DNA from: a virus
DNA: 64,000 nt
IMG/VR virus record: IMGVR_UViG_3300028829_004116
Coordinates: 28,256-92,255 of that record
Strand: one strand, 5' to 3'
Part shown: positions 3,001-45,345 of the stretch, one piece after another
Layout of the letters: each line of letters begins with the position of its first letter
How positions within the stretch are numbered: position 1 is the first letter of the stretch
Made by a program: the position numbers and the translations under genes
The notes under the pieces: model-generated
Database searches by the model: none
The model's input: the letters and a program-made list of their open reading frames with translations, nothing else
Told to the model about the DNA's origin: nothing

Positions 3001-5293
3001 TAAAATGTGGTTTAACGGTACTACAATGGATATAGGTGCTGTTACAACTTCACAAGTATTTAGCCTTACGGTTGGTTCGGACAGCAGTTATAATCAAGTA
3101 ACATTGAGATTAACAAATGTAACTAATACGGCATTAACCTTTGCTACTGACACGGGGAGTACAAGTCCCGGTTGGTCTAATTCGGATGAAACAAATTGTG
3201 TATTAACAATAAAAGGTCACTCTACAACAGTGAGTAAATCTGCACAGAGATTATTCCCAATAAGAGCAATACAGGACAGCAAACATGGAGGTGCATTTAC
3301 ATTTAAAAATATGCACCCAGTTATTTTAGACATACCTACCTATTCTGGAAATACAGGGTCCGACGCATTAGGAACAAGTATTGAATGTAAGGCTACTGGT
3401 GCTATTATTACAGAAGAACCTGAAAGTATTTCACATTTTTCTATACAAGTAGGTGGGTTTAAACATGATGAAAGCGTATATGATGTAGACGGATTAGAAA
3501 TTTTAGTTCATAACGATTCAACAAGTAGTTCTGCTACCCCCGGAATATATGAAAATAATATTGGTGGAACAAATTTTGCTGGAGTAAGACCGATAGAAGT
3601 TTTATTCAAACCATTTATAGATGTATCAGATTTCACAGTAACAACACATGCCGATGATGCTAGTTTAAAAACTACTGAAAAGATTTTATCTACTAATATG
3701 AAGGTAGATGTTTTAGATTATAACGCCGGTAGCGGCACTAATGAATGGTTATGTTATTCTAATAATTTGACAGGTTACTATTTATATGGAAATAATAAAT
3801 TATATAAAATTATTTCTCACACTGTTGCTAAAGACTCTACAACATTTAAACATTATTTAAAAATAGATAATACCAATATTGCCAGCACAGGTCCTACGGT
3901 AGCCGCTACCCCAAGTGGTAATTTAACTCTTATGAAAATTAATCAAACCTGTACTTACGATTATTCACCTAAAGAAATACAATTAAATAAGCCTTCTTAT
4001 CTTTACACTAAAAAACCCGGACATGATAAAATGACAGATAAAGTACCTTCAGCACTTGATATAAGAGGTGGAAAGGAAATTCTTAATGGTGGATATTATT
4101 TAAGTGGTATCGCAAGGGGAGGTATTGAATCTTTATATACTGTAATTGAACCTGATGGCACTGGAGGTAGTTATTTAATACCTCGGACAAATTCTGATAT
4201 TTCATTTACAAATAGTTTTTCAATTAATAGCGAACATTCAGTGTATATAACTGACGGTATTAATTCACTAAGAACTTCTATGTTTGTAAGTAATAATAAG
4301 TCGTTGTCATTTACAGATATGAAAGAGATGAAAGGCACACCTTCTATCGGAAGTATTTTTACTATTACTACTAACCAAAATCCAGACTTTAAACCTGAAT
4401 CAATTAGTATCTGCGCCCCGTTTAAAGTCGTGAGAGAAGCAGAAGAAATTGCCGATGATATTTTATCTAAGGTTGGATTACCGTATAATAAATCAGATAA
4501 TACCGACAGATATTATTTAGCGGCAAATTACACAGGAGAGAATGCTCTTACTGCCACTAATAATGCCTTATCATTTAAAGGTTTAAAATTAAAAACAGCA
4601 GGGCAGGATATAATTATTACCAGTGATGAAGATGAAAAGGATTATAGAGATATTGTTTTTGATGAAGATGATGATAAATATTCTATCATTAGTATTAAAA
4701 AGGACAAAACTCTCTATGATAGATTTAACAAAGTAATTTTATACGGAGATGGAGTTAGAGGGTTTGCTTCTAATTACAGAGATATTAAAAAACGCAATAG
4801 AGAATATGTTAAAGAAGTCTACGACTTTTCAATTGTAGATTCAAAACAAGTACAAGAAAAGGCAATTAAATTATTAAAATTATTTACAAATTTACAGGAA
4901 GCCGTTGAGATTGAAGTTGGCAATAGAATACCTTTCTTAGAATCAGGACATATAGTTACAGTTAGTTTCCCAACTGAGGGTATTGATAGAGGGGAATATG
5001 TGGTAATAGAAGTTAATAGAGAAATGGCCTACCCCGTTAAAATACTGCTTGGACAATATAATAGAGATTTAGCAAATACATTTTCCATGTTACTTTCGGA
5101 AACACGCAATTTACAAGGGAGGTCTAAGCAAAAAGTTTATACGAGTGTGACCTCTCCTAATGTTGATATACAAGCGATGAAGGTGAAATTAGTTAGGGCG
5201 AGCATAACTAAAACAACACAAGCAACTGCCAGTAGTGGTTCAACATTAGGATTAACAAAGGGATTAGGTTTAGATTCGGGGATGGGACTATGA
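2..5293 (+). CDS. Giant tail/baseplate-associated structural protein (5'-truncated by the window edge)
   Basis: The frame of the 329..5293 ORF is open back to position 2, so the gene begins upstream. T/G/S/N-rich beta-type sequence, a C-terminal region resembling phage tail/hub proteins, and position before the fibre gene. Confidence 0.7.
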   Translation, partial: DIHGLEYVYEGRYYGYNAKVITGDKPNGFTTLDFEPESSYYSNSHILNSLKGNLLVYRTIFEGKIESTETKVEQGQFKYEITGRDVIGDLLNTAVNTNYTYSDEFVYSTMNPFNENYTDIGRNVSSISGAVVTADGAPNVNFGDVLYLKGTHGSLDPSYYLLGVVKSVSGNDITLVKDCYIRKHTTFVGDTTLATDIYKARRSVLAGKTLETSLRNTDRATTLIGSADKGAVFTTGKYFDYGTAYADNGKLNTITSRTIEGCTFSNTSTTITTPADGTADLIAGMLVRGTGIPDKATIVSITNTTTFTLSANTTSASATGGNSLIFGDLNGFEINNLITTISDDTDYTDSPIAFDFHYNTISSMVDFPVLSEVDTKDGLTQFEIGYVSPIVVGRIETDNLLDTFIESSDTAQASRKNNSIYLINGQGMPLGGFLHLLGGEVNTDKSPKTFNNDFEEDPTLNGTVNSQYALRFNSPIWRYVNKCFGRLTRNLATKITSANTTYPFHYNDYYEKVSNYHFYASGYKASVGRIPTADEHKDDTDADKPYRIELPTERTGLLPAVGSRSYDITRYPDNFNTSENHYGRRLEIDDTGISMVDRYKATYELYDNDSGPLHIFSIGDIYPESKKNPNNIGFTEGTYSRSIADYGVVFKGQPKGAEVVLSHTNWSGVSTIKNRLNDDYFYQPIESSKGDLKRMNLVRLTDVTYDMMMNEVDYENYKFDNFGGPKTHQIISEQITKNSHIIKSFTESGFSPIDITLTSNISAGTTIAVNDDGWFDTGGNYIYTLYTDPFDSYSANSAHNDFDYGVPLLIGQVASVSNNTITIPAISVSHPAVGYTSGSKLYVTVKLAAESATTNTLSISGNNRQQFPIIKVTEVDNGDGVMDHNYNTTMALVNVGDGNTTGPDLDAGDGDIAEENRFPLNVDNGTIAATLHDINGIVKLPYIPDSITDGSHFNGNNGLETTTGTNTHMFRWNFDANFNGAVMTITNGKALDFFQSNGQGKMWFNGTTMDIGAVTTSQVFSLTVGSDSSYNQVTLRLTNVTNTALTFATDTGSTSPGWSNSDETNCVLTIKGHSTTVSKSAQRLFPIRAIQDSKHGGAFTFKNMHPVILDIPTYSGNTGSDALGTSIECKATGAIITEEPESISHFSIQVGGFKHDESVYDVDGLEILVHNDSTSSSATPGIYENNIGGTNFAGVRPIEVLFKPFIDVSDFTVTTHADDASLKTTEKILSTNMKVDVLDYNAGSGTNEWLCYSNNLTGYYLYGNNKLYKIISHTVAKDSTTFKHYLKIDNTNIASTGPTVAATPSGNLTLMKINQTCTYDYSPKEIQLNKPSYLYTKKPGHDKMTDKVPSALDIRGGKEILNGGYYLSGIARGGIESLYTVIEPDGTGGSYLIPRTNSDISFTNSFSINSEHSVYITDGINSLRTSMFVSNNKSLSFTDMKEMKGTPSIGSIFTITTNQNPDFKPESISICAPFKVVREAEEIADDILSKVGLPYNKSDNTDRYYLAANYTGENALTATNNALSFKGLKLKTAGQDIIITSDEDEKDYRDIVFDEDDDKYSIISIKKDKTLYDRFNKVILYGDGVRGFASNYRDIKKRNREYVKEVYDFSIVDSKQVQEKAIKLLKLFTNLQEAVEIEVGNRIPFLESGHIVTVSFPTEGIDRGEYVVIEVNREMAYPVKILLGQYNRDLANTFSMLLSETRNLQGRSKQKVYTSVTSPNVDIQAMKVKLVRASITKTTQATASSGSTLGLTKGLGLDSGMGL

Positions 5294-28069: not shown

Positions 28070-28372
28070 TTATTCAGCATTCCAATCACCGAACTCTTCT
28101 TCAGTCATTTCTGTTTCTCTTGAAATTACTTCACCTGTATAGGCTTCTTCATCTATTTCATCCACACGATTATCCAACATTGTAAGGTATGCCAATCGAA
28201 CATCTGTTGCTCGTAAGCGTGAATTATTACCACGCTTTTGTGCTTCATAGTTCGACAAGTTAACCAATGCTTCAATCAGTTGTTTCGCTCTTTCTTGAAA
28301 TTCAATTGCCGCATCTTGTGTAACGCCACGCTTTCCTTTCCACATTCTCATTATTTCTCTAATACTAACCAT
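28070..28372 (-). CDS. Histone-fold protein with acidic C-terminal tail
   Basis: VTQDA-x33-ATDVRLA matches archaeal HMf VSDDA-x32-AEDIELA; GGAGG RBS. Confidence 0.7.
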   Translation of the reverse strand: MVSIREIMRMWKGKRGVTQDAAIEFQERAKQLIEALVNLSNYEAQKRGNNSRLRATDVRLAYLTMLDNRVDEIDEEAYTGEVISRETEMTEEEFGDWNAE

Positions 28373-28776: not shown

Positions 28777-29447
28777 ATCATGTGTTCTCCTTTTCCAATA
28801 ACAATTGCTTCTTGATTAATAGGTCGCCAATTACGCAGGGTTCTATTATCTGTTCCAGACCAAAAGGCATAACCAAAGGGATGAGTATGAATCCAACAAC
28901 GGATAGGAATACTCATTCCTGTAACATTTACCCCGCCATAATCTACATAACCCGGACTTCCACTATTCATAAATAGTTTTCCTTTACGGTCTACAATAAC
29001 TGATACTTCAAGGCCCGGTAGAATACTGGTAGAAGCATTCCAAATTGCATCTAAAAATCTACGGTCACGAGGAATATCTTCTCCTTTTCGCAATAAATGT
29101 CCCCAAACTTCATTAATTTCTTTTTGCCAGACTTCAGCAGGAATATCTGTATGTTGAACATTTAGTGGGCCTTTTGGTTCTGTTCCACGGAAAAAGGAAC
29201 TCATAGCCCCTCCTTCGTATTTAGGTTCAACTTTAGCACCGTAAGTTTGTAGGGTTTCTTGAACCCATTCGGTGTTATCTTCTTCACGAATTATTGCTAC
29301 AACTTCATACCTTGAGTTGATAACTAATTCATCAATGTATTCCGCATCGTTCTCAGGTTCCCAAGTTTCATAGAACAAGTCTATCATATCCTCGGTCACT
29401 TCTTCTTCATGTCCAATTATTTCTTCTCTTACTATTTTATCACTCAT
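28710..29447 (-). CDS. JAB/MPN+ metallo-isopeptidase
   Basis: Catalytic E (LEVSV) and H-T-H-P-x5-S-x2-D (HTHPFGYAFWSGTD); probable start 29447, coupled to ThiF. Confidence 0.88.
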   Translation of the reverse strand: MSDKIVREEIIGHEEEVTEDMIDLFYETWEPENDAEYIDELVINSRYEVVAIIREEDNTEWVQETLQTYGAKVEPKYEGGAMSSFFRGTEPKGPLNVQHTDIPAEVWQKEINEVWGHLLRKGEDIPRDRRFLDAIWNASTSILPGLEVSVIVDRKGKLFMNSGSPGYVDYGGVNVTGMSIPIRCWIHTHPFGYAFWSGTDNRTLRNWRPINQEAIVIGKGEHMIWEKTTEGERMTKIVDREAFEL

Positions 29448-30022
29448 GCGCTCACCACAATATGTTTTGGAGTATAATCTCCAGCAAAGAATCTTTGAAC
29501 CCATTGTGCGCCATAACCTGCAACCGCTACATGAGTAAAGTGGACTCCTTGATTACTTTTATCCCAATTATCACCTTGACATGAAAAAGAACCTTCCGGT
29601 CCTGCTGTTAATGTCGAGTAAAGTTTCGGGTCTTCATCCGAACTTACAAGCAAACCGGCTCGACCCTGCGCTCTCAAATCAAGCCATCTAATGCCTGATT
29701 TATAAAGCATCTTTCGCACATCTAAGTTATCAGCACAACATATAACTAAGTCATACCCTTCAATTTGAGAAGGTGTAAGAACCTTATATGGTTGAGATTT
29801 AAAGACAAATCTTTGTGATAGTGCTTCTGCTTTATTCAAGCCAACATCATCAGCATCAAAGTTTTGATAACTTAGGTTTTTCATTTCAACAACATCAGGG
29901 TCATACACTGTAATGTCGTATAACCTCGTAGTTGTAATCATTCTATTTGGTCTATCTAATAGTGAAATCAAGTAAGACCCAATTCCACCGCATCCAATAA
30001 TCATTATTTTATTTTTCTTCAT
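29444..30022 (-). CDS. ThiF/MoeB/E1-family adenylyltransferase
   Basis: GCGGIGS, DPDVVE..NLSYQ, NKAEAL, CCADN; candidate catalytic Cys in FSCQ. Confidence 0.92.
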   Translation of the reverse strand: MKKNKIMIIGCGGIGSYLISLLDRPNRMITTTRLYDITVYDPDVVEMKNLSYQNFDADDVGLNKAEALSQRFVFKSQPYKVLTPSQIEGYDLVICCADNLDVRKMLYKSGIRWLDLRAQGRAGLLVSSDEDPKLYSTLTAGPEGSFSCQGDNWDKSNQGVHFTHVAVAGYGAQWVQRFFAGDYTPKHIVVSA

Positions 30023-30621
30023 ACATATTTCCCCATTTTTTTTACATGTCGCCATACGGTATTTTCACTTACATGAAACATTCTTGCTACCTTACCGTAT
30101 GACAAGTCGGTAGCCAAATATATACAGGACATGAGAACTTCTTTCGTTATTTTCATGTCATCAGATACATAGGTAATTAATTTCTTCGCATTCAAATTAT
30201 GTGTATCACAGAACTCATGCGCCTCTTCAACTGAATAAACTAAGTCTATGTTGAAAATGTTCTGTAATCTTTTAACAACGGTTTTAGCCCTGCGTGTTTT
30301 AACCCCCATGAAGCCGCCCAACTTTGCTAAATTGAGCGACTTGTTGTTAAGGAACACTACTGCTACTGATAGTTCCGACATAGTATAATTACCCTTGAGT
30401 AAGGCAACATAAGATGAGCGAAACATTTTTTTAATTTCTTCTGTTTTTTCTATTCCAAATTCACTACAAATTAGAGATAATTCTACTAAGTTTCTATCCA
30501 CTTTAACGGAATTATTTATCTCCATAATTCTCGAAACATTAATAAAATTACAAGCCTCGCATACATAGAGGTTTATCTCCTTGTCGAATTTATTTCTACC
30601 GGAACAATATAGACAAGGCAT
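30019..30621 (-). CDS. Divergent transcription factor B (TFB/TFIIB)-like protein
   Basis: N-terminal Zn ribbon CxxC-x14-CxxC, cyclin-like helices (CIYLA), C-terminal HTH (YGKVARMFHVSENTV). Confidence 0.7.
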   Translation of the reverse strand: MPCLYCSGRNKFDKEINLYVCEACNFINVSRIMEINNSVKVDRNLVELSLICSEFGIEKTEEIKKMFRSSYVALLKGNYTMSELSVAVVFLNNKSLNLAKLGGFMGVKTRRAKTVVKRLQNIFNIDLVYSVEEAHEFCDTHNLNAKKLITYVSDDMKITKEVLMSCIYLATDLSYGKVARMFHVSENTVWRHVKKMGKYV

Positions 30622-34704: not shown

Positions 34705-34725
34705 TTTAATCACCTCAATAATAAG

Positions 34726-34809
34726 TGGCGGGGGTGGGATTCGAACCCACGAAGCAATACGCACCGGAATTTAAGCCCGGCCCCTTTGACCGTACTTGGG
34801 AACCCCGCC
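34726..34809 (-). tRNA. tRNA-Leu(UAA)
   Basis: Cloverleaf: acceptor GGCGGGG/CCCCGCC, anticodon loop CTTAAAT, long variable arm, GTTCGAATC. Confidence 0.93.
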
Positions 34810-34821
34810 CTTATTATTTAT

Positions 34822-35130
34822 TTATTCTTCACCCTCTTCAACTTTAGGGTGACAGTTACATTCGCAAGAATCTTCACAAACTCTTACAGGTGCTTTACCA
34901 ACAGCAAGGCGGTAGCATCCAAAATCCATTCGTTGAAACTTTTTACAGCCTCCACCATTTTCACATTGATAACGGAAAACAGGGGCATCTGGCTTTGAGC
35001 AAGCACAAAGTTGTCGCTCGCAATCTGCCCACGGTTTTTTTAATTCTAATCTCGTACCATTAACTGTCAGCACATTCTTCTTGTCTTTACTTACAAATCT
35101 TTCATAATTCATCATATTATATTCCTCCAT
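34822..35130 (-). CDS. Cys-rich hypothetical protein
   Basis: Many Cys in 102 aa; coupled ORF. Confidence 0.55.
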   Translation of the reverse strand: MEEYNMMNYERFVSKDKKNVLTVNGTRLELKKPWADCERQLCACSKPDAPVFRYQCENGGGCKKFQRMDFGCYRLAVGKAPVRVCEDSCECNCHPKVEEGEE

Positions 35131-35294
35131 ATTATTTGGTTATCCTTTTTAATGGCGATAACTTTCCATTCTGTTGCATAAATTTGGTTGGTATTATTAT
35201 CAACCTGCAAGTTACAACACTTACATATTCTATATCCCCGTAGGGTTTCTTTCAGTATTAATACTGTATCGCAGTTAAAACATTTTATCATCAT
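35112..35294 (-). CDS. Small Zn-ribbon protein
   Basis: CFNC...CKCC; GAGG RBS. Confidence 0.55.
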   Translation of the reverse strand: MMIKCFNCDTVLILKETLRGYRICKCCNLQVDNNTNQIYATEWKVIAIKKDNQIIWRNII

Positions 35295-35313
35295 TTTAAT
35301 TACCTCGAATAGG

Positions 35314-35388
35314 TGGACAATACCGGATTTGAACCGGTGGTCGCTCGGTTATGAGCCGAGTGCATTAACCATACTATGCTAATTGTCC
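35314..35388 (-). tRNA. tRNA with CAU anticodon (elongator Met or Ile2)
   Basis: GGACAAT/ATTGTCC acceptor, CTCGG-CTCATAA-CCGAG anticodon arm, GGTTCAAATCC. Confidence 0.9.
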
Positions 35389-35390
35389 AT

Positions 35391-35465
35391 TGGCGGGCAT
35401 ATCAGGAATCGAACCCGAATCTTCGGCTTAGAAGGCCAAAATGCTATCCATTACACCATATGCCC
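35391..35465 (-). tRNA. tRNA-Arg(UCU) with encoded CCA
   Basis: GGGCATA/TATGCCC acceptor, anticodon loop CTTCTAA, GGTTCGATTCC, 3' GCCA. Confidence 0.93.
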
Positions 35466-37135: not shown

Positions 37136-37405
37136 TCATTCTTCATCACCCCAAACATAGTCATCAAAGTCCATCATTGCTGAATCATTGTGAAGAACTT
37201 GCTTGTAAGCCCATTTAGTCGCCCTTGTTAACTGTTCACTCAACCTCTTGATGTATGCTTCTTTTTCCTTTACTTGTCTTTTTAAAACAACAACAGGGTT
37301 ATCTTCACTACCTGCCCAACCGCAACGGTAACAAACATAGTAGTCTTCATCAACTTGTTCAGCCATTCTTCCACAGCCTTCTCCTTGACATTGTATTTCT
37401 TTCAT
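37136..37405 (-). CDS. Zn-ribbon plus coiled-coil protein
   Basis: CQGEGC...CYRC. Confidence 0.55.
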   Translation of the reverse strand: MKEIQCQGEGCGRMAEQVDEDYYVCYRCGWAGSEDNPVVVLKRQVKEKEAYIKRLSEQLTRATKWAYKQVLHNDSAMMDFDDYVWGDEE

Positions 37406-39315: not shown

Positions 39316-39801
39316 TTATTTTAGCCATTCTGGTCTTCCTCCTTTTCTATACTTTGCGAAATGTTTTTTCTCTGCAATGTAATAGTTACGATACGCTTGT
39401 ATTGTATCGTCACATTTGTACTTCTCAGGCATACACTGTGGAGGTTCTCTCCAACCTGTGCCTAAATCTTCGGGTGGTTTATCCAACACACCTATGAATC
39501 TCGAACTGCCGTGTATCTTTCCATAACGGCGAGTGTATTCTTTGCACATCTCGACATATAGTTCATAATGCCATAGATATTGCTCATTTGTCTCCCTTGT
39601 CCAAATGGTTGAGGGATGACCTACATGAGCAGGTTTGAACAACTTTGCACAATTTAGTCTCTCAACCTTTTCTAAAGTGTTTGCTTTACACCAATGAGCG
39701 GCGCATAACATTTGAGCCGATTCGGTTATCATTTTCACTACATGTTTGTCGCATAATTCTTGTGCAGAAATCTGCGGGTTTCCTAAATAAAATATGTTCA
39801 T
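39316..39801 (-). CDS. Pyrimidine-dimer DNA glycosylase (DenV)-like protein
   Basis: MNIFYL...CDKHVVKM..ESAQML, HP.T.W, EYT.RYGKIH, AYRNYY family motifs. Confidence 0.7.
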   Translation of the reverse strand: MNIFYLGNPQISAQELCDKHVVKMITESAQMLCAAHWCKANTLEKVERLNCAKLFKPAHVGHPSTIWTRETNEQYLWHYELYVEMCKEYTRRYGKIHGSSRFIGVLDKPPEDLGTGWREPPQCMPEKYKCDDTIQAYRNYYIAEKKHFAKYRKGGRPEWLK

Positions 39802-39917
39802 TTTTGTTCACCTTTTTATTTTTTTTTATTTTGTTTTTTCCTCGATGCTTGTCTTGTTAGGGAAACTTACATTTCCCTGATGAAAAGTTAGATTGTGTTA
39901 GATATGGGTCATATTGA

Positions 39918-40205
39918 CCGACATTCTCACCGTGAGACATATGAGAAACACAAAGTGTAGGAGATAATCGCCCTACCTCATACATTTCGCATGACATTCT
40001 CACTTTCTCATGTTTCTCACTCAGTATGCCTTACACATATATACATACATAATACATACTGATATATATAATAATAATAATAAGAAAATAGAGTTAAGAG
40101 TATATGAGAATATTGAGAATATGAGAATGTGAAACACTTTGTTTTCTATAATCCCAATATATACTACAAACTGTTTTCTCATGTGTGTCTCAAATGAGAA
40201 TGTCC
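39918..40205. repeat. TTCTCA/TGAGAA iteron-like repeats around an AT-rich core (candidate replication origin)
   Basis: About 10 copies in both orientations, non-coding, near the strand switch. Confidence 0.5.
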
Positions 40206-40514
40206 AACGGATTGTAATACATAGTATAAATTAAATAAAACATAATAAAGTAAATAATACAAAGTGTTTTTTAGGTTTGGTTTCTTATGTGAACATTTGA
40301 AATAATTGGTTCAATGCGTTCAAGTGACTTGAGATAGTCAATGAGGGGGCCAAATGGCTATAAGGTGGTGGCGGTTTGAATGCAGCGAATGAAAGTAAGT
40401 GTAGCACTCTACACTAGGTGTAGCGCATAACACCACTATTATTCACCAATAATTATTATCTGTTTTAACTACCATATGGTTGCGGTATCGTTAATTTGTT
40501 TAGTAGCAACCTCG

Positions 40515-40556
40515 AAAAAAAGGCCCCCCACCCCTCCGAAGAAGGGTGAGGAGCGG
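40515..40556 (-). terminator. GC hairpin plus T-tract
   Basis: CTCACCCTTC-TTCG-GAGGGGTGGG followed by T7 on the - strand. Confidence 0.6.
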
Positions 40557-40599
40557 CACTCCTACTTAAAAGCAGGTGAAAACGACTAATTCGACTTAA

Positions 40600-40626
40600 T
40601 CATTCATCATCATCAAAGAGGTTCAT
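40600..40626 (-). CDS. Micro-ORF MNLFDDDE
   Basis: ATGA-coupled to the upstream gene; peptide recurs elsewhere. Confidence 0.5.
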   Translation of the reverse strand: MNLFDDDE

Positions 40627-40976
40627 TGAGAAGCCGCCTTAATGGATGCGATTTTGGCTTTAGTGAGTCGCTCACTGATGTTTTCGATTGTTCGGTCACG
40701 AGGAACCGACAAATCGGGATAAGCATTGAAAATTGCATGAAGCATCTTTGACGATTCTACAACATCGGCTTTTTCAGCCTCATTCAATACCACTTTCAAG
40801 CGTGTTCCCTTGATAATAAGGTGAACCTGTTCAACCCATTGTCCGACTCTTGGCGAGTCGGGGTGTTGTTCAATTCGCTCCAAATACATTTGAACATCAT
40901 CAATGTTCATTGGGTCGTTTGCTTCATTTTCAAGCCATATGTTGGCCTTCGCTACTACTTTTTCGGTGTCAAGCAT
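40623..40976 (-). CDS. Hypothetical (probably early) protein
   Basis: GGAG RBS; preceded by the palindrome/TATA cassette. Confidence 0.6.
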   Translation of the reverse strand: MLDTEKVVAKANIWLENEANDPMNIDDVQMYLERIEQHPDSPRVGQWVEQVHLIIKGTRLKVVLNEAEKADVVESSKMLHAIFNAYPDLSVPRDRTIENISERLTKAKIASIKAASQ

Positions 40977-41704
40977 TCTTATCTCTCCTGCCCTTTCGGG
41001 TATTATTATCATCTAATTAAACCCTATAAGGTAGTAAGCAAATCAGCCTTACCATATGGTTCAAGATTTCAAAAAATAAAAAGTTCAGGCGAAGCGAAAC
41101 TTGTTAAAGGGTGGCTTGAGGGTGGTGAAAAGAACAAGTCTTTACTTTGCGGTTTTTTGAAACAACGAAGTGTCTTTAATCTCAGGCTCGTACCTTACCA
41201 TATGGTAATAACGACAAGTGAAGTGTAAGGAGTAAGCAGTATTCAATGAACAATACTGCTACGACGCAACATTCTTCACCGAGTTTATCCTTAATAAAAG
41301 GTATGGACATTCCATTTTCCGAGGGAGTGAACTCCCCGTGACAAAATATTGCCCACCCTCATACCACCCTATTTTATCACTATCGGAACCATATGGTAAG
41401 GAAACATAATGTTTTCTATGTTAAGCGAAAAGAAATGTATGCAAAGACTAATACATTCTTTGAGCGGCAGGGCTATTAGCCCAATAGAAGGGCATTAGTA
41501 TTGCGAAACCTGACGAAAAATAAGGACCGTAAAAGACGACTTCGCAAACCTTTGCTTCATTTCCCTCCCACATGCACACCCATATTCTGCAAAATTTGCC
41601 TCACCGTTTTTTACTTGCTTCGCATCCATATGGTAAGGAAAATTTGTCGAACACCTTATATCTATTTCGTCATAGGTAATGATACCCGAAGGGGGTTAAG
41701 TATT

Positions 41705-42370
41705 ATGGCTGATAAAACAGACAAAAAAATGATGACTGACGATGAATGGAATGCGTGGACCGCTGATGTTAAAACATTTGTAGAAAACAAGGCTGAGGTT
41801 TTGCGACTTACAGCACTTCCCGAAAACGATGAACAGTTGCGTGGAGGCGAGGCATTTAATGCCGATAACTTTGAAGATGATTTTCAAGATATTGTTAATT
41901 TCTTAAGCCGTGGTTCTACCCGAATCGCTATGCGTGGAATATACAAGACTGATATTCTTTCCCGTGGTCGAAAAATGTCACTTTGGCCTAAGCGTCAAGG
42001 TGGCGGTGTTTCAATGCCAGCATATCAACAAACGGTTCTTAATCAAGCGGATGCAATTTACTCAGAAGCATATACCGCTTTTTGGAATGTTCTTGAAGAA
42101 CACGGTGCTTCTCACCTTGAAATGACTCGTGCTTCAAATGTCAAACAAGAAGATGGGCAACCTTACTCGAATGTTCAAGCATTCGTTAAGACTCGAAAGA
42201 CTTCAAAGATTGCAGGTCTTAAAGCAGACATCAAGGACAATCTTTGGGTTGATGCAAATAACGAAAAGAAGTTCAGTATTTCAAATGCACTTCTTCGACC
42301 TGCCGACCCATCAAAAGCACCTGTGGTCGAACAGGCTCAAGACGACAATGAAGAAGAGGACTCTCAATGA
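41705..42370 (+). CDS. Hypothetical (probably early) protein with acidic C-terminus
   Basis: Probable start MADKTDKK at 41705, after the palindrome/TATA cassette and a GGGGG RBS. Confidence 0.7.
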   Translation: MADKTDKKMMTDDEWNAWTADVKTFVENKAEVLRLTALPENDEQLRGGEAFNADNFEDDFQDIVNFLSRGSTRIAMRGIYKTDILSRGRKMSLWPKRQGGGVSMPAYQQTVLNQADAIYSEAYTAFWNVLEEHGASHLEMTRASNVKQEDGQPYSNVQAFVKTRKTSKIAGLKADIKDNLWVDANNEKKFSISNALLRPADPSKAPVVEQAQDDNEEEDSQ

Positions 42371-42396
42371 GTATCTTCTTTGACGACGATGAATGA
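42367..42396 (+). CDS. Micro-ORF MSIFFDDDE
   Basis: ATGA-coupled; peptide recurs. Confidence 0.5.
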   Translation: MSIFFDDDE

Positions 42397-42543
42397 TTTT
42401 TAATCATTCGGGGAATTGACGGGTTAAAGAAAAGAACTCGCTGTGTTGAGTAAACAATGCAGGGCAAAACAAATCGGAGTTATGGATTCTCCTTAAAAAT
42501 CCACCTTTTTTAAGGCAAGGTCTATCATACAAATTACTTTGAT

Positions 42544-42602
42544 ACCATATGGTAAGGATAATTTGTAGCACACCTCATATAGGTTTTGATGGCGGCTAAG
42601 GT
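42544..42602 (+). promoter_or_regulatory. Promoter-like cassette CCATATGGTAAGG-n3-ATTTG-n7-ACCTYATA
   Basis: Same cassette at 41626(+) and 41059(-); TATA-like box about 22 nt before ATG 42603. Confidence 0.55.
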
Positions 42603-42776
42603 ATGTTTTGGAAGAAACGAGAACCGAAGTTTGTAATTAAAGTTAAGCAGAACCGCTACGAGAAGTTCATCATTGATGAATTGCGTGTAAGTGCGGATAG
42701 TCAAGAAGAGTTAGAAAAAGAACTCATTCTTGCACTAAAACAAATCTCTCAACAACTTCAGGAGATGAACGCTTGA
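42603..42776 (+). CDS. Hypothetical protein (57 aa), not in ORF track
   Basis: MFWKKREPKF...; probably leaderless; coupled to the next ORF. Confidence 0.6.
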   Translation: MFWKKREPKFVIKVKQNRYEKFIIDELRVSADSQEELEKELILALKQISQQLQEMNA

Positions 42777-42970
42777 TGAGAATTGGCCCTGTTGCACCTT
42801 TAGGTCATGGCTTTGTTGAAAAGCCTTATACTAATTGTAAATGGTGTCAAACAAAACTCGACCCCAACCAACACATGATGTATTATTGCGATACCGCTTG
42901 TTTTCATAAACAAAACATAACGGGTGGAATGATACAAACCTTTTATGTTCCAAAGGAGGAAGAAGAATGA
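42776..42970 (+). CDS. Small Zn-finger protein
   Basis: CKWC...YCDTAC. Confidence 0.6.
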   Translation: MRIGPVAPLGHGFVEKPYTNCKWCQTKLDPNQHMMYYCDTACFHKQNITGGMIQTFYVPKEEEE

Positions 42971-43131
42971 AATACCCAGAAAAATTCATAACAGCGGCTC
43001 TAATTAAAATGGACTCCGAAGAACTTTCTGCTTTGGCAGATGCTCTATGGGAAGATTGGAAAAGAGTCAACGATGCTTTGAATGTAGTTAAGGATATGGA
43101 ACTACAACAAAGTGAAGCAAGTGAAGAATAA
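42967..43131 (+). CDS. Hypothetical protein (54 aa), not in ORF track
   Basis: GGAGG RBS, ATGA-coupled; MKYPEKFITAALIK... Confidence 0.6.
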   Translation: MKYPEKFITAALIKMDSEELSALADALWEDWKRVNDALNVVKDMELQQSEASEE

Positions 43132-43134
43132 TTC

Positions 43135-43460
43135 CTTAGCGGTGGAGGGTGGCATAAGGTGGGGTATGATAATGATGGTAAGTTATCTACGCCCTTTCTA
43201 CCTAATCTTGGTGATTAAAGTGATAAATATAAAAGAGAGTAGTAATTCTAATCTCGGCCAAAAATAATTACCGAAAGGGTGTAAGGCCCTTTTCTACTCC
43301 CTAAAAAGAGATATGTGGGTTTGTTTAATAAAAATACTAAAAGTTTAAGGCTTGTTTTCGTTTGTGCTTCGTTTATTCGGGGTTTTTTGATAGAACATAA
43401 GATGGCGGCTGTGAAAAGTCGGTCTTAGGTATTTTCCCACTATCTTTTTTTTCTTTTTTT
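43135..43460 (+). ncRNA. Putative structured non-coding RNA
   Basis: Three multi-stem domains ending in a long T-tract; no ORF. Confidence 0.35.
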
Positions 43461-43534
43461 ATGATAAGGCTTGGTTACAAATTACCCCTTACCATATGGT
43501 ATGCACAGCATAATACCGCAGGAGGTGAACAGGA

Positions 43535-43570
43535 ATGATTTGTGAAGACGATGAATGCGATTGCGAATAA
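43535..43570 (+). CDS. Micro-ORF MICEDDECDCE
   Basis: Strong GGAGGTG RBS in the repeated ACCGCAGGAGGTG cassette. Confidence 0.45.
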   Translation: MICEDDECDCE

Positions 43571-43631
43571 TCATTCTATTTCTGTTACCATATGGTAGGC
43601 GTAAGCATAATCTACCGCAGGAGGTGTAAAA

Positions 43632-43655
43632 GTGTTCTTTGACGATGACGAGTAA
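43632..43655 (+). CDS. Micro-ORF MFFDDDE (GTG start)
   Basis: Strong GGAGGTG RBS; peptide recurs. Confidence 0.5.
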   Translation: MFFDDDE

Positions 43656-44673
43656 CCCCGTATCTAACTTTTCTTACCATATGGTAGGGCTGGCGTGACA
43701 TGTAAATGTATAGCCAAAATGCACACCTTACCTATATATAAGGACATATCTTATGGAACTTTAACACAGCCGTTCCTTATTCCCACCCTCAAGCACACCC
43801 TACATTCGTCACTCTCCGTGTTAAAATTCCATAACATACTTTCTACTACATAGAACCATATGGTAATAATAATGAGGAAGGAGTAGGCAGTATTCACAAG
43901 ATAATACTGCTACGACTGAACGAGTATATATATATCCTTAAAAAATAAGGACATAATGTCATTATTTTCGTTAGTAAGTGAAAATATCTTCCCACCCACA
44001 TACCTACCCATATTTTTATTATCTACGAACCATATGGTAAGTAAAAAGGTAGTCCAAAAATTTACCTTACCATATGGTTCACTTTGGGAATTTTTTTATT
44101 AAAAAACATTAAATACGCAAAGCCCGTCATAATAAATATGCGAGATTTTATGAAAAAAGTTGTGCGCCAACATAAAAATACCTTATATCTACCCTCAATG
44201 TGGGCCATGATGGAAGAAATAGATAAAATATTATGGCTTTGGGACCATTTTGACACACTTTGGCGCAACTCATACCCCCCTCCAGCCAATAATCAAGAAG
44301 AATTAGGCTTAATACTTGCGGAGATACGCAAAACTCGGCAAAACTGTAAAACTTTATATAGACATTGCGAGTTAGACTGTAATAGTTGGAGTGCATTACA
44401 AGACTTACCTTTAGAAACTCTCGTAATTCGCCAAAAGGGGAATACACTTGACAAAAAAGACTCAAATAAACAAAAAGATACGGCGAAAGAAAGGAGAGCC
44501 AAGTAAAAAGAGTGAAAAGTTAAGGCCAAATAAACCAAACTATCAAAGAAAACAAAGGAGAAATAAATAATGTCGGGAATAAACTTTCGCTGGGAATGGA
44601 TTAAAAAAGAAAAATTTTTTTTCGCTAGTCCCAAAAAAATTCCCGGCCAATTTTTGAAAAAGGCGGTGTAATA

Positions 44674-45345
44674 ATGGATTGGAAGGATATATTAAAAATT
44701 AAAATAAACAGTTTAAGTGATGCTTCAAGGGTAGCGAGAGATTATGTGCCGGAAGATTACATAGAGGGGCATTTACTTACACAAGAAGAATATGATAAAT
44801 TGTCCAATGAGGAAAAAAGAAAATATCATAAGAAAGTTTATAATAAATACGCAAATTTAAATCTAAATAATAGAAGAGAGGCCAAATGGCATAATAACAA
44901 TGCAGGGCGAATAAAGACCGATATAGGAAATGCTATTTTAAAACCCCACCCCACAGAAGAAGAAGATTTTAAGCCAGCACCAACAGGCTTTCCGGCAAAA
45001 CCAAATAGTTATAAAAATATTTTACAAGGGTCAGGTAGAAGATTATATGGACCATATAGACTTCGTACAGCAAAAGCACACGGATATAGAGTACCGAGAA
45101 AACCACAAAGAAAAAGGGGTCCAAAAAGAAAAAGGGGTGCAAAAAAGGGTTCAAAACACGAGTCTACAAAATTAAGAGAAAAACGACAAAACGAGAAAAT
45201 CAACCAAATCATCGTTGATTATTTTAAAATCTATAACAGTAGGTTTGGCCGTAATCCCACTTTACAAGAAATAGCAAATGAAGAGGATAGACCCCTTACA
45301 GTAGATGAAATTGAATCGTTTAAGAGATATGCACAGGGTAGGTAA
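44674..45345 (+). CDS. MDWKDILK-leader basic protein
   Basis: Leader; K/R-rich; C-terminal RNPTLQEIA HTH-like segment. Confidence 0.75.
   Translation: MDWKDILKIKINSLSDASRVARDYVPEDYIEGHLLTQEEYDKLSNEEKRKYHKKVYNKYANLNLNNRREAKWHNNNAGRIKTDIGNAILKPHPTEEEDFKPAPTGFPAKPNSYKNILQGSGRRLYGPYRLRTAKAHGYRVPRKPQRKRGPKRKRGAKKGSKHESTKLREKRQNEKINQIIVDYFKIYNSRFGRNPTLQEIANEEDRPLTVDEIESFKRYAQGR

Follow-up and report, generated by a model that had tools for sequence, protein, structure and literature searches.

The early control region of the virus recorded as IMGVR_UViG_3300028829_004116 carries several micro open reading frames (micro-ORFs) that end in FDDDE or a similar acidic string, and the locus raises the question of whether these are genes and, if so, how such short peptides could act. 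The window, namely the whole stretch of DNA analysed here, is 64,000 nucleotides long (positions 28,256 to 92,255 of the record) and forms the last 64 kb of the 92-kb virus genome. Its control region, at 40470-44079 on both strands, contains 12 copies of the palindrome TACCATATGGTA and all of the window micro-ORFs. A six-frame scan finds MNLFDDDE at 40600-40626 on the minus strand (ATG AAC CTC TTT GAT GAT GAT GAA TGA), MSIFFDDDE at 42367-42396 on the plus strand (ATG AGT ATC TTC TTT GAC GAC GAT GAA TGA), MFFDDDE at 43632-43655 on the plus strand (GTG TTC TTT GAC GAT GAC GAG TAA) and MICEDDECDCE at 43535-43570, also on the plus strand (ATG...TAA). An earlier note on this DNA had placed all four micro-ORFs here and had described synonymous differences among the DDDE codons of the window copies, and both points hold; MFFDDDE, however, starts with GTG and not with ATG. 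The three FDDDE copies are the only F-[DE]4-stop strings of the complete genome (92,255 bp, six frames scanned), against a chance expectation of 0.14 on average and 2 at most in 200 first-order Markov simulations. Comparison of related genomes shows the micro-ORFs to be a conserved, multi-copy family of putative minigenes under peptide-level selection, which are either coupled to genes or housed in units with an apparent promoter and Shine–Dalgarno (SD) sequence of their own.

The comparison covers 4 viral and 24 metagenomic loci encoding homologues (93-46% identity) of P0001, the early gene upstream of MSIFFDDDE, and 23 of these loci reach as far as the end of P0001. Distinct micro-ORF instances number 55, on about 18 related marine viral contigs. 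Each genome has 3-7 copies, all of them inside the early control region, and in a complete 90.8-kb relative all five motif matches fall inside one 3.7-kb segment. A canonical start codon is present in 55 of the 55 instances of these closer relatives. When a strict cassette pattern was searched across IMG/VR, the matches were confined to this clade, one chance match and two more distant viruses, L108 and L109. L108 has the palindromes and the cassette with no detectable P0001, and L109 encodes a P0001 homologue of 29% identity (34% for P0002, the other early gene with a trailing copy), which is followed by (TTG)LNRFFDDDDD.

Evidence that the micro-ORFs are read as peptides comes from their codons. 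Among 41 unique versions of the last eight codons, all 41 have Glu at position -1 (GAA in 26 and GAG in 15). Position -2 carries D in 29 versions and E in 12, 38 versions have D at position -3, and 38 have D or E at position -4. Upstream of this acidic run, 19 versions have N and 14 have F at position -5, and 27 have F at position -6; 31 versions stop with TGA and 10 with TAA. Within the last three codons, variation is confined to the third base. GAT and GAC, GAA and GAG, TTT and TTC, and AAT and AAC are all in use. On a minimum spanning tree of 39 unique cores, 31 codon changes are silent and 33 alter the amino acid, with exchanges between D and E making up 16 of these 33; the synonymous share of 48% compares with 12% expected under random mutation. 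N-terminal length varies from 0 to 6 residues, and the ORFs are 5-13 codons long. The earlier note had proposed peptide-level selection and had named, as evidence to the contrary, loss of the start, stop or frame in homologous loci that keep the nucleotide motif. The opposite is seen in the relatives, where start, stop and frame are kept while the nucleotides drift and the synonymous bias bears the proposal out, with the copy behind P0002 in L109 as a partial exception.

The same data bear on whether the repeat might be an untranslated nucleic-acid motif, that is, a (GAN)4 purine repeat plus a hairpin that is read as RNA or DNA. The GA dinucleotide is indeed invariant with a period of 3, and regulatory repeats crowd the region around the copies. 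However, the period-3 wobble, the retention of start codon, SD sequence and stop codon, the synonymous TTY and AAY variation and the variable N-terminal length argue for a coding constraint and not for a fixed binding site, and such an untranslated motif is very improbable.

One set of copies trails genes. P0002 (40623-40976 on the minus strand; 117 aa from the ATG at 40976, with the ORF open to 41012) ends in ...KAASQ, and P0001 (41705-42370 on the plus strand; 221 aa) ends in ...NEEEDSQ. The ATG of MNLFDDDE overlaps the TGA stop of P0002 (ATGA), the ATG of MSIFFDDDE overlaps that of P0001 in the same way, and both junctions read TCTCAATGA. The earlier note had described ATGA coupling to two genes that share an SQ-stop ending; the coupling stands in the window, but the shared ending does not extend beyond close relatives, others of which end in ...ESA, ...ASE, ...DSE or ...EQV. 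The C-terminal tails of P0001 diverge freely (...EEDSQ, ...TEESA, ...EEASE, ...KGDSE, ...DEDEQV) while the adjoining micro-ORF core is kept. In all 23 loci that include the end of P0001, a micro-ORF starts at an ATG, GTG or TTG overlapping the TGA of the gene (NTGA). These micro-ORFs encode MSIFFDDDE, MSYFFDDDE, MSSFFDDDE, MRFSFDDEE, MKFFEDDEE, (GTG)KFFEDDDE, (TTG)KSFFEDDEE, MKTFDDDE, MKHFFHFFEDDEE and MRVFFNEDEE. Every P0002 homologue is likewise trailed by MN[LHR]FDDDE (MNHFDDDE and MNRFDDDE in relatives), MNFNDDDE, MRFNDDEE, (GTG)ISFDDDE, (GTG)IFNEDDE or MSFNEDEE.

Two further gene types carry a trailing copy in relatives, namely one for a Cys-rich protein of 55-56 aa (MFDDDE, MFNDDDE, MLNEDEE, MIEDDE) and one for a 70-aa protein (LFDDE). 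Both occur in relative L001 as two extra small genes at 4650-5032 on the minus strand (56-aa Cys-rich, and 70-aa followed by (TTG)LFDDE), and both are absent from the window between 44028 and 44068. At genes other than P0001 the junctions include TGATG, TGA-ATG and near-overlaps. Gene-trailing copies have an ATG, GTG or TTG start that overlaps or abuts the upstream stop, and all have an SD-like GAGG, AAGG or GGTG 4-14 nt upstream of the start, within the upstream coding sequence; in the window, GAGGA lies inside P0001 codons 8 nt upstream of the MSIFFDDDE start. Such an arrangement resembles termination-reinitiation in bacteria and archaea, in which ATGA and TGATG overlaps are used, and it shares with it the ATGA, GTGA, TTGA and TGATG overlaps and the SD-like motif in the end of the upstream gene. 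It differs in that the downstream cistron has only 5-13 codons, the same peptide follows unrelated genes and the cistron ends inside a hairpin.

Because nearly all P0001 and P0002 loci place the micro-ORF in the -1 frame with an NTGA overlap, a -1 frameshift at the end of the upstream gene could in principle add an acidic FDDDE tail to a fraction of P0001 and P0002. The distant L109 would agree with such recoding, since its junctions are both CTGA with no canonical start at the overlap. However, the overlap contains no slippery heptamer, just 3-5 upstream codons are open in the -1 frame, the junctions vary in sequence from one lineage to another, and the closer relatives have a start codon in every instance. 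Nor is the frame fixed. In L058 the micro-ORF follows directly after the stop in frame 0 (TGA ATG), and a run of 5 or 6 Gs shifts the relative frame of the LFDDE copy between lineages, from -1 in L001 to +1 in L044 and L050. Stand-alone copies exist as well, and the frameshift extension was rejected as extremely unlikely. None of the 18 database homologues of P0001 has an in-frame FDDDE tail. The two gene ends in L109 (3221-3942 and 4345-4760) both read CTGA; the trailing LNRFFDDDDD ends in Asp, and the other trailing string, SRRDDDE, is without a canonical start. The system may be decaying in L109, or may be started there by a different translation route.

The remaining copies stand alone. 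The cassette of MFFDDDE (43586-43686, plus strand) consists of a palindrome at 43586-43597, the sequence ACCGCAGGAGGTG at 43614-43626, the GTG...TAA ORF, the T-rich stretch CTAACTTTTCTT and the next palindrome at 43675-43686. Cassettes of this first class encode MFFDDDE, MFNDDDE, MFNDDEE, MFNEEDE, MFNEDDE, MFNDEDE, MFNEDEE and MFYDDDE in relatives. A second cassette (43490-43570, plus strand) has the palindrome TACCATATGGTA at 43490-43501 and ACCGCAGGAGGTG at 43515-43527 ahead of MICEDDECDCE, so that the same ribosome-binding sequence stands 5-7 nt upstream of both start codons, and the cassettes with ribosome-binding sites of their own that the earlier note had ascribed to these two micro-ORFs are confirmed. 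Stand-alone cassettes in general comprise their own palindrome, a near-perfect SD sequence (GGAGGTG), a spacer of 5-7 nt, a start codon (GTG or TTG in the first class), 6-12 sense codons and a stop. There are up to three per locus, bracketed by palindromes, and they have no neighbouring ORF to regulate. In both peptide cassettes of the window the distance from palindrome centre to SD sequence is about 25 nt.

The kinship of MICEDDECDCE with the FDDDE peptides that the note had suggested is one of kind, since it represents a second conserved class of cassette. Its homologues (..CCGCAGGNGGTGAACAGGA ATG ATT..) encode MICEDDECNCE in L042, MINPDDDLDQDGE in L036 and MINPDDDIDHDGE in L054, and the cassette is absent from L001. 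All second-class peptides are acidic and all end in Glu. The D-x-D-x-D-G and C-x-C spacings are suggestive of metal-binding loops.

What, then, would such peptides do? Our preferred explanation, which we hold tentatively, is that the micro-ORFs are real, translated minigenes making a trans-acting acidic peptide, and that its C-terminal hexapeptide recognises a site, either basic or metal-containing, on some protein of the virus or the host. The functional part would be F-[F/N]-[D/E]-D-[D/E]-E-COOH. Translation of gene-trailing copies would depend on termination-reinitiation, and that of stand-alone copies on ordinary SD-led initiation, with transcripts of ~70 nt as templates; these transcripts, with a length of ~70-90 nt, would start just upstream of GGAGGTG and end at CTTTTCTT. 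With minigenes on several early mRNAs and in dedicated cassettes, a large pool of peptide would build up in early infection. An action in trans is suggested by the multiple copies and the isolated cassettes, and the peptide might, for example, be a co-factor, either for whatever factor reads the palindromes or for one of the early proteins P0001 and P0002. The note had also suggested mimicry of protein-interaction tails. A mimic of a host protein tail with the same sequence is not supported, because the C-terminal codon motif occurs in 2 of 401 Poseidoniales genomes, roughly as often as expected by chance, and in 0 of 5 further Marine Group II (MGII) genomes. A copy of a host protein tail or of a host minigene was rejected on the same ground.

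Several observations weigh against a peptide acting in trans. Peptides of 6-9 residues are normally degraded fast. A constraint within the ribosome would likewise explain the invariant Glu-stop ending. In the distant L109, the P0002-trailing copy lacks Phe and has CTG as its sole possible start. Finally, gene-trailing copies end in a conserved hairpin, which suggests a cis role at the 3' end of the mRNA that a purely trans-acting peptide would not need.

In the window, the hairpin GAAUGAUU-UUU-AAUCAUUC (42391-42409, plus strand) starts at the last Glu codon of MSIFFDDDE, holds the UGA stop in its 5' arm and is followed by GGGG. The MNLFDDDE copy has an RNA hairpin at 40577-40609 on the minus strand with its last codons and stop in the 5' arm (minimum free energy -15.5 kcal/mol, z = -2.5), and a second hairpin and a T-run lie 3' of it. 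Single-sequence folds of 14 distinct P0001-type copies all show a hairpin of 6-8 bp that starts with the last Glu codon; in 13 of them it has the stop in its 5' arm, and in most GGGG comes after it. The arms vary in a compensated manner (GAAUGAUU/AAUCAUUC, GAGUGAUU/AAUCACUU, AGAAUGA/UCAUUCU, GAAUAAGU/ACUUGUUC); RNAalifold predicts no pairs on an ungapped MAFFT alignment of the hairpins because their loop lengths differ. The stand-alone cassettes have no strong hairpin (z = +0.9), and their ORFs are followed by a T-rich stretch and then the next palindrome. Metatranscriptome contigs from four marine runs of one study, at low depth, cover 40450-40692, 42220-42441 and 43508-43853 at 99.6-100% identity; they attest to the presence of the sequence in RNA libraries only, and strand, transcript ends, transcription and translation are outside their reach.

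These hairpins support an action in cis on the ribosome, in which the acidic nascent chain and tRNA-Glu in the P site at a hairpin-buried stop would cause slow termination, intrinsic ribosome destabilisation or peptidyl-tRNA drop-off. The consequences would be for early mRNA stability or 3'-end formation, for read-through into the next unit or for ribosome and tRNA availability, and the peptide would be a by-product. The Glu-stop ending fits this explanation, as do the compensated hairpin of the P0001-type copies, the comparable one at the P0002-type copy and the restriction of conservation to the six C-terminal residues, which are nearest the peptidyl-transferase centre, while the N-terminal part varies in length. 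Phage lambda provides a precedent in its SD-led minigenes, which act through peptidyl-tRNA. The bar minigenes of lambda are also virus-encoded, SD-led ORFs of a few codons outside any protein gene; they are toxic through peptidyl-tRNA drop-off and accumulation, an effect that peptidyl-tRNA hydrolase modifies. However, they consist of two codons and it is the tRNA that matters, whereas here the amino-acid sequence is selected, GAA and GAG alternate and the host is archaeal. The alternation at the last codon, together with the heavy use of Glu by the virus, argues against starvation for a single tRNA.

The principle of an effect on the ribosome is supported by two reports, according to which translating ribosomes of bacteria and eukaryotes are destabilised when a D/E-rich stretch lies close to the N-terminus (PMC9718836; PMC12673854). 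However, four D/E residues gave little or no destabilisation in published tests (PMC9718836), and strong intrinsic ribosome destabilisation was down-weighted along with bar-like tRNA starvation. The conservation of Phe and Asn at positions -6 and -5 also speaks against a cis action, as do the stand-alone cassettes, which have neither a partner ORF nor a strong hairpin. Leader and arrest peptides, including the Mg2+-sensing MgtL that works by intrinsic ribosome destabilisation, resemble the micro-ORFs in being short ORFs for a conserved peptide with acidic residues near the start and an adjoining hairpin. They differ in lying upstream of the gene that they control; the micro-ORFs lie 3' of genes or in isolated units of ~70-90 nt and have four acidic residues. 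An action in cis, on the ribosome or the mRNA 3' end, is the main alternative, though a rather unlikely one.

If the peptide is instead a signal, one pool of F-[F/N]-acidic peptide, fed by every early transcript, would be read by a factor at TACCATATGGTA to time the exit from early expression, or by neighbouring infected cells after lysis. In the first form the pool would be an intracellular timer, adding up early transcription and acting back on the promoters at the palindromes; in the second, the peptide would be set free at lysis and enter nearby host cells, as in arbitrium. In the RRNPP and arbitrium systems, with peptides such as Phr and AimP, a small peptide gene stands behind or overlaps a helical protein gene. 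This layout recurs here in a virus, and the supply of a single pool by every early transcript would suit a signal. Furthermore, cassettes and palindromes are inherited together even in L108 and L109, in which P0001 is absent or only 29% identical. However, RRNPP and arbitrium peptides are cut from secreted precursors of 30-60 aa and are bound by tetratricopeptide repeat (TPR) receptors, whereas the ORFs here have 5-13 codons with no signal sequence or pro-peptide, and the same peptide trails at least four unrelated genes. P0001 and P0002 are helical, and no receptor family, TPR included, was matched in Pfam or PHROG searches with both or in a fold search with the P0002 model. The virus is apparently lytic, and magroviruses, which it resembles (see below), have been inferred to be lytic and without integrases (PMC11706807). 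A signalling role is accordingly unlikely in either form.

The seven-codon precursor gene of microcin C, MccA, offers another comparison with the proposed trans-acting minigenes, because it is a heptapeptide gene with its own ribosome-binding site and the virus has a ThiF-family gene elsewhere. MccA ends in Asn and adjoins mccB and genes for export and immunity, unlike the micro-ORFs, which are multi-copy and end in Glu throughout. The genes that neighbour the micro-ORFs have no family match, and no MccB-type adenylyltransferase and no export or immunity genes adjoin them. Enzymes of the ThiF superfamily activate carboxylates at C-termini, and in the synthesis of microcin C and pantocin they do so on short peptides. 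The only ThiF-family gene of the virus encodes an E1-like protein of 203 aa (29444-30055, minus strand; Pfam E = 4e-14) about 10 kb away, and no link between it and the minigenes was found. Because the micro-ORFs fail the tested defining features of bar, MccA, RRNPP/arbitrium and leader peptides, we rate them, on the strength of sequence conservation, as a putative new kind of element. No account of these peptides or of the palindrome region was found in the literature consulted, and the magrovirus papers in it make no mention of palindromes, promoters or small ORFs.

The two upstream proteins, which are candidate partners of the peptide, have no Pfam or PHROG match. A profile search with P0001 against PDB sequences and the ESM Atlas gave no match, and its AlphaFold2 model is unreliable (predicted local distance difference test, pLDDT, 51). 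P0002 is predicted to be all-helical with five helices (pLDDT 86), and a Foldseek search of this model against the PDB found no match below E = 0.9.

The virus itself is a tailed virus, as indicated by PHROG matches to terminase, family B DNA polymerase, a GroEL-type chaperonin and ribonucleotide reductase, and every relative comes from marine samples. Its DNA polymerase is nearest to those of haloarchaeal tailed viruses (26% identity), and its GroEL is 36-37% identical to GroEL of metagenome-assembled genomes of Thalassarchaeaceae and Poseidoniales (MGII); a first scan of genome contigs with the viral GroEL gave no match. No DNA similarity was found to any of 50,697 phage records. Group B magroviruses have linear tailed-virus genomes of ~100 kb with family B DNA polymerase, GroEL, ribonucleotide reductase, tRNA-Leu and tRNA-Arg, and infect MGII archaea (PMC5434244). 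Three tRNA genes, for Leu-TAA, Met-CAT and Arg-TCT, lie at 34725-35465 on the minus strand, and the Leu and Arg genes match those reported for this group. The gene set agrees with the published group features, and the virus thus resembles magrovirus group B, an assignment made by gene content and not by phylogeny.

The 3.6-kb control region separates leftward from rightward genes, and each palindrome in it heads a short unit. With up to 2 mismatches, TACCATATGGTA has 13 matches in the window, 12 of which fall within 40470-44079, against 3.4 expected for the window. These 12 are at 40470, 41050, 41196, 41387, 41624, 42543, 43490, 43586, 43675, 43854, 44028 and 44068. In appearance the palindromes are promoters or operators that serve numerous short transcription units on either strand, possibly bidirectional archaeal ones that are read by a TFB-like factor of the virus's own. 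Two asymmetric forms occur. The longer, CCATATGGTAAGG-(A/T)AATTTGT-N-ACC-T(T/C)ATA(T/G), stands ahead of protein genes (P0001, P0002 and the gene at 42603), and shorter forms stand ahead of tiny units.

Some palindrome-headed units, at 41196-41390 and 43854-44030 and also at 41387-41625, have no convincing ORF. ORF-less units contain a conserved hairpin, GCAGTATT-N8-AATACTGC, at 41236-41259 and 43887-43910, and have C-rich boxes of the type CCCACCC-N-CACCC at their ends (41352, 41563, 43782, 43991). Such units are kept in relatives and are candidates for small RNAs; an Rfam search of 39500-45000 returned only a chance-level miRNA match, at 41213-41279. Acidic ends are also frequent among the ordinary genes of the window. 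Genes ending in ...EEE or ...DEE are common throughout, for example at 37136, 37402, 37632, 37967, 38865 and 42956, and 16 of the 87 window ORFs of at least 100 aa have a C-terminal Glu. This is likely because the SD sequence of the next, overlapping gene (GAGGAAGAATGA) is written into the last codons.

If the peptides are made, few known protein-coding genes that are conserved are as short as theirs, and no gene of this kind was known before from an archaeal virus. As the earlier note supposed, gene callers overlook these ORFs, and so do small-ORF surveys with cut-offs of 15-30 aa; what escapes them is a class of conserved coding elements that can be detected by combining a repeated C-terminal motif with wobble-only variation. 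Should the signal interpretation prove true, it would reveal the first peptide-based counting circuit in an archaeal virus, built from the shortest multi-copy protein-coding genes known. Magroviruses, which are abundant ocean viruses with unculturable hosts, have 3-7 copies of the minigenes wired into the early control region of each genome. The viral takeover of MGII archaea could be approached cheaply through a 7-mer made by synthesis, a cassette of 90 nt and the two small partner proteins.

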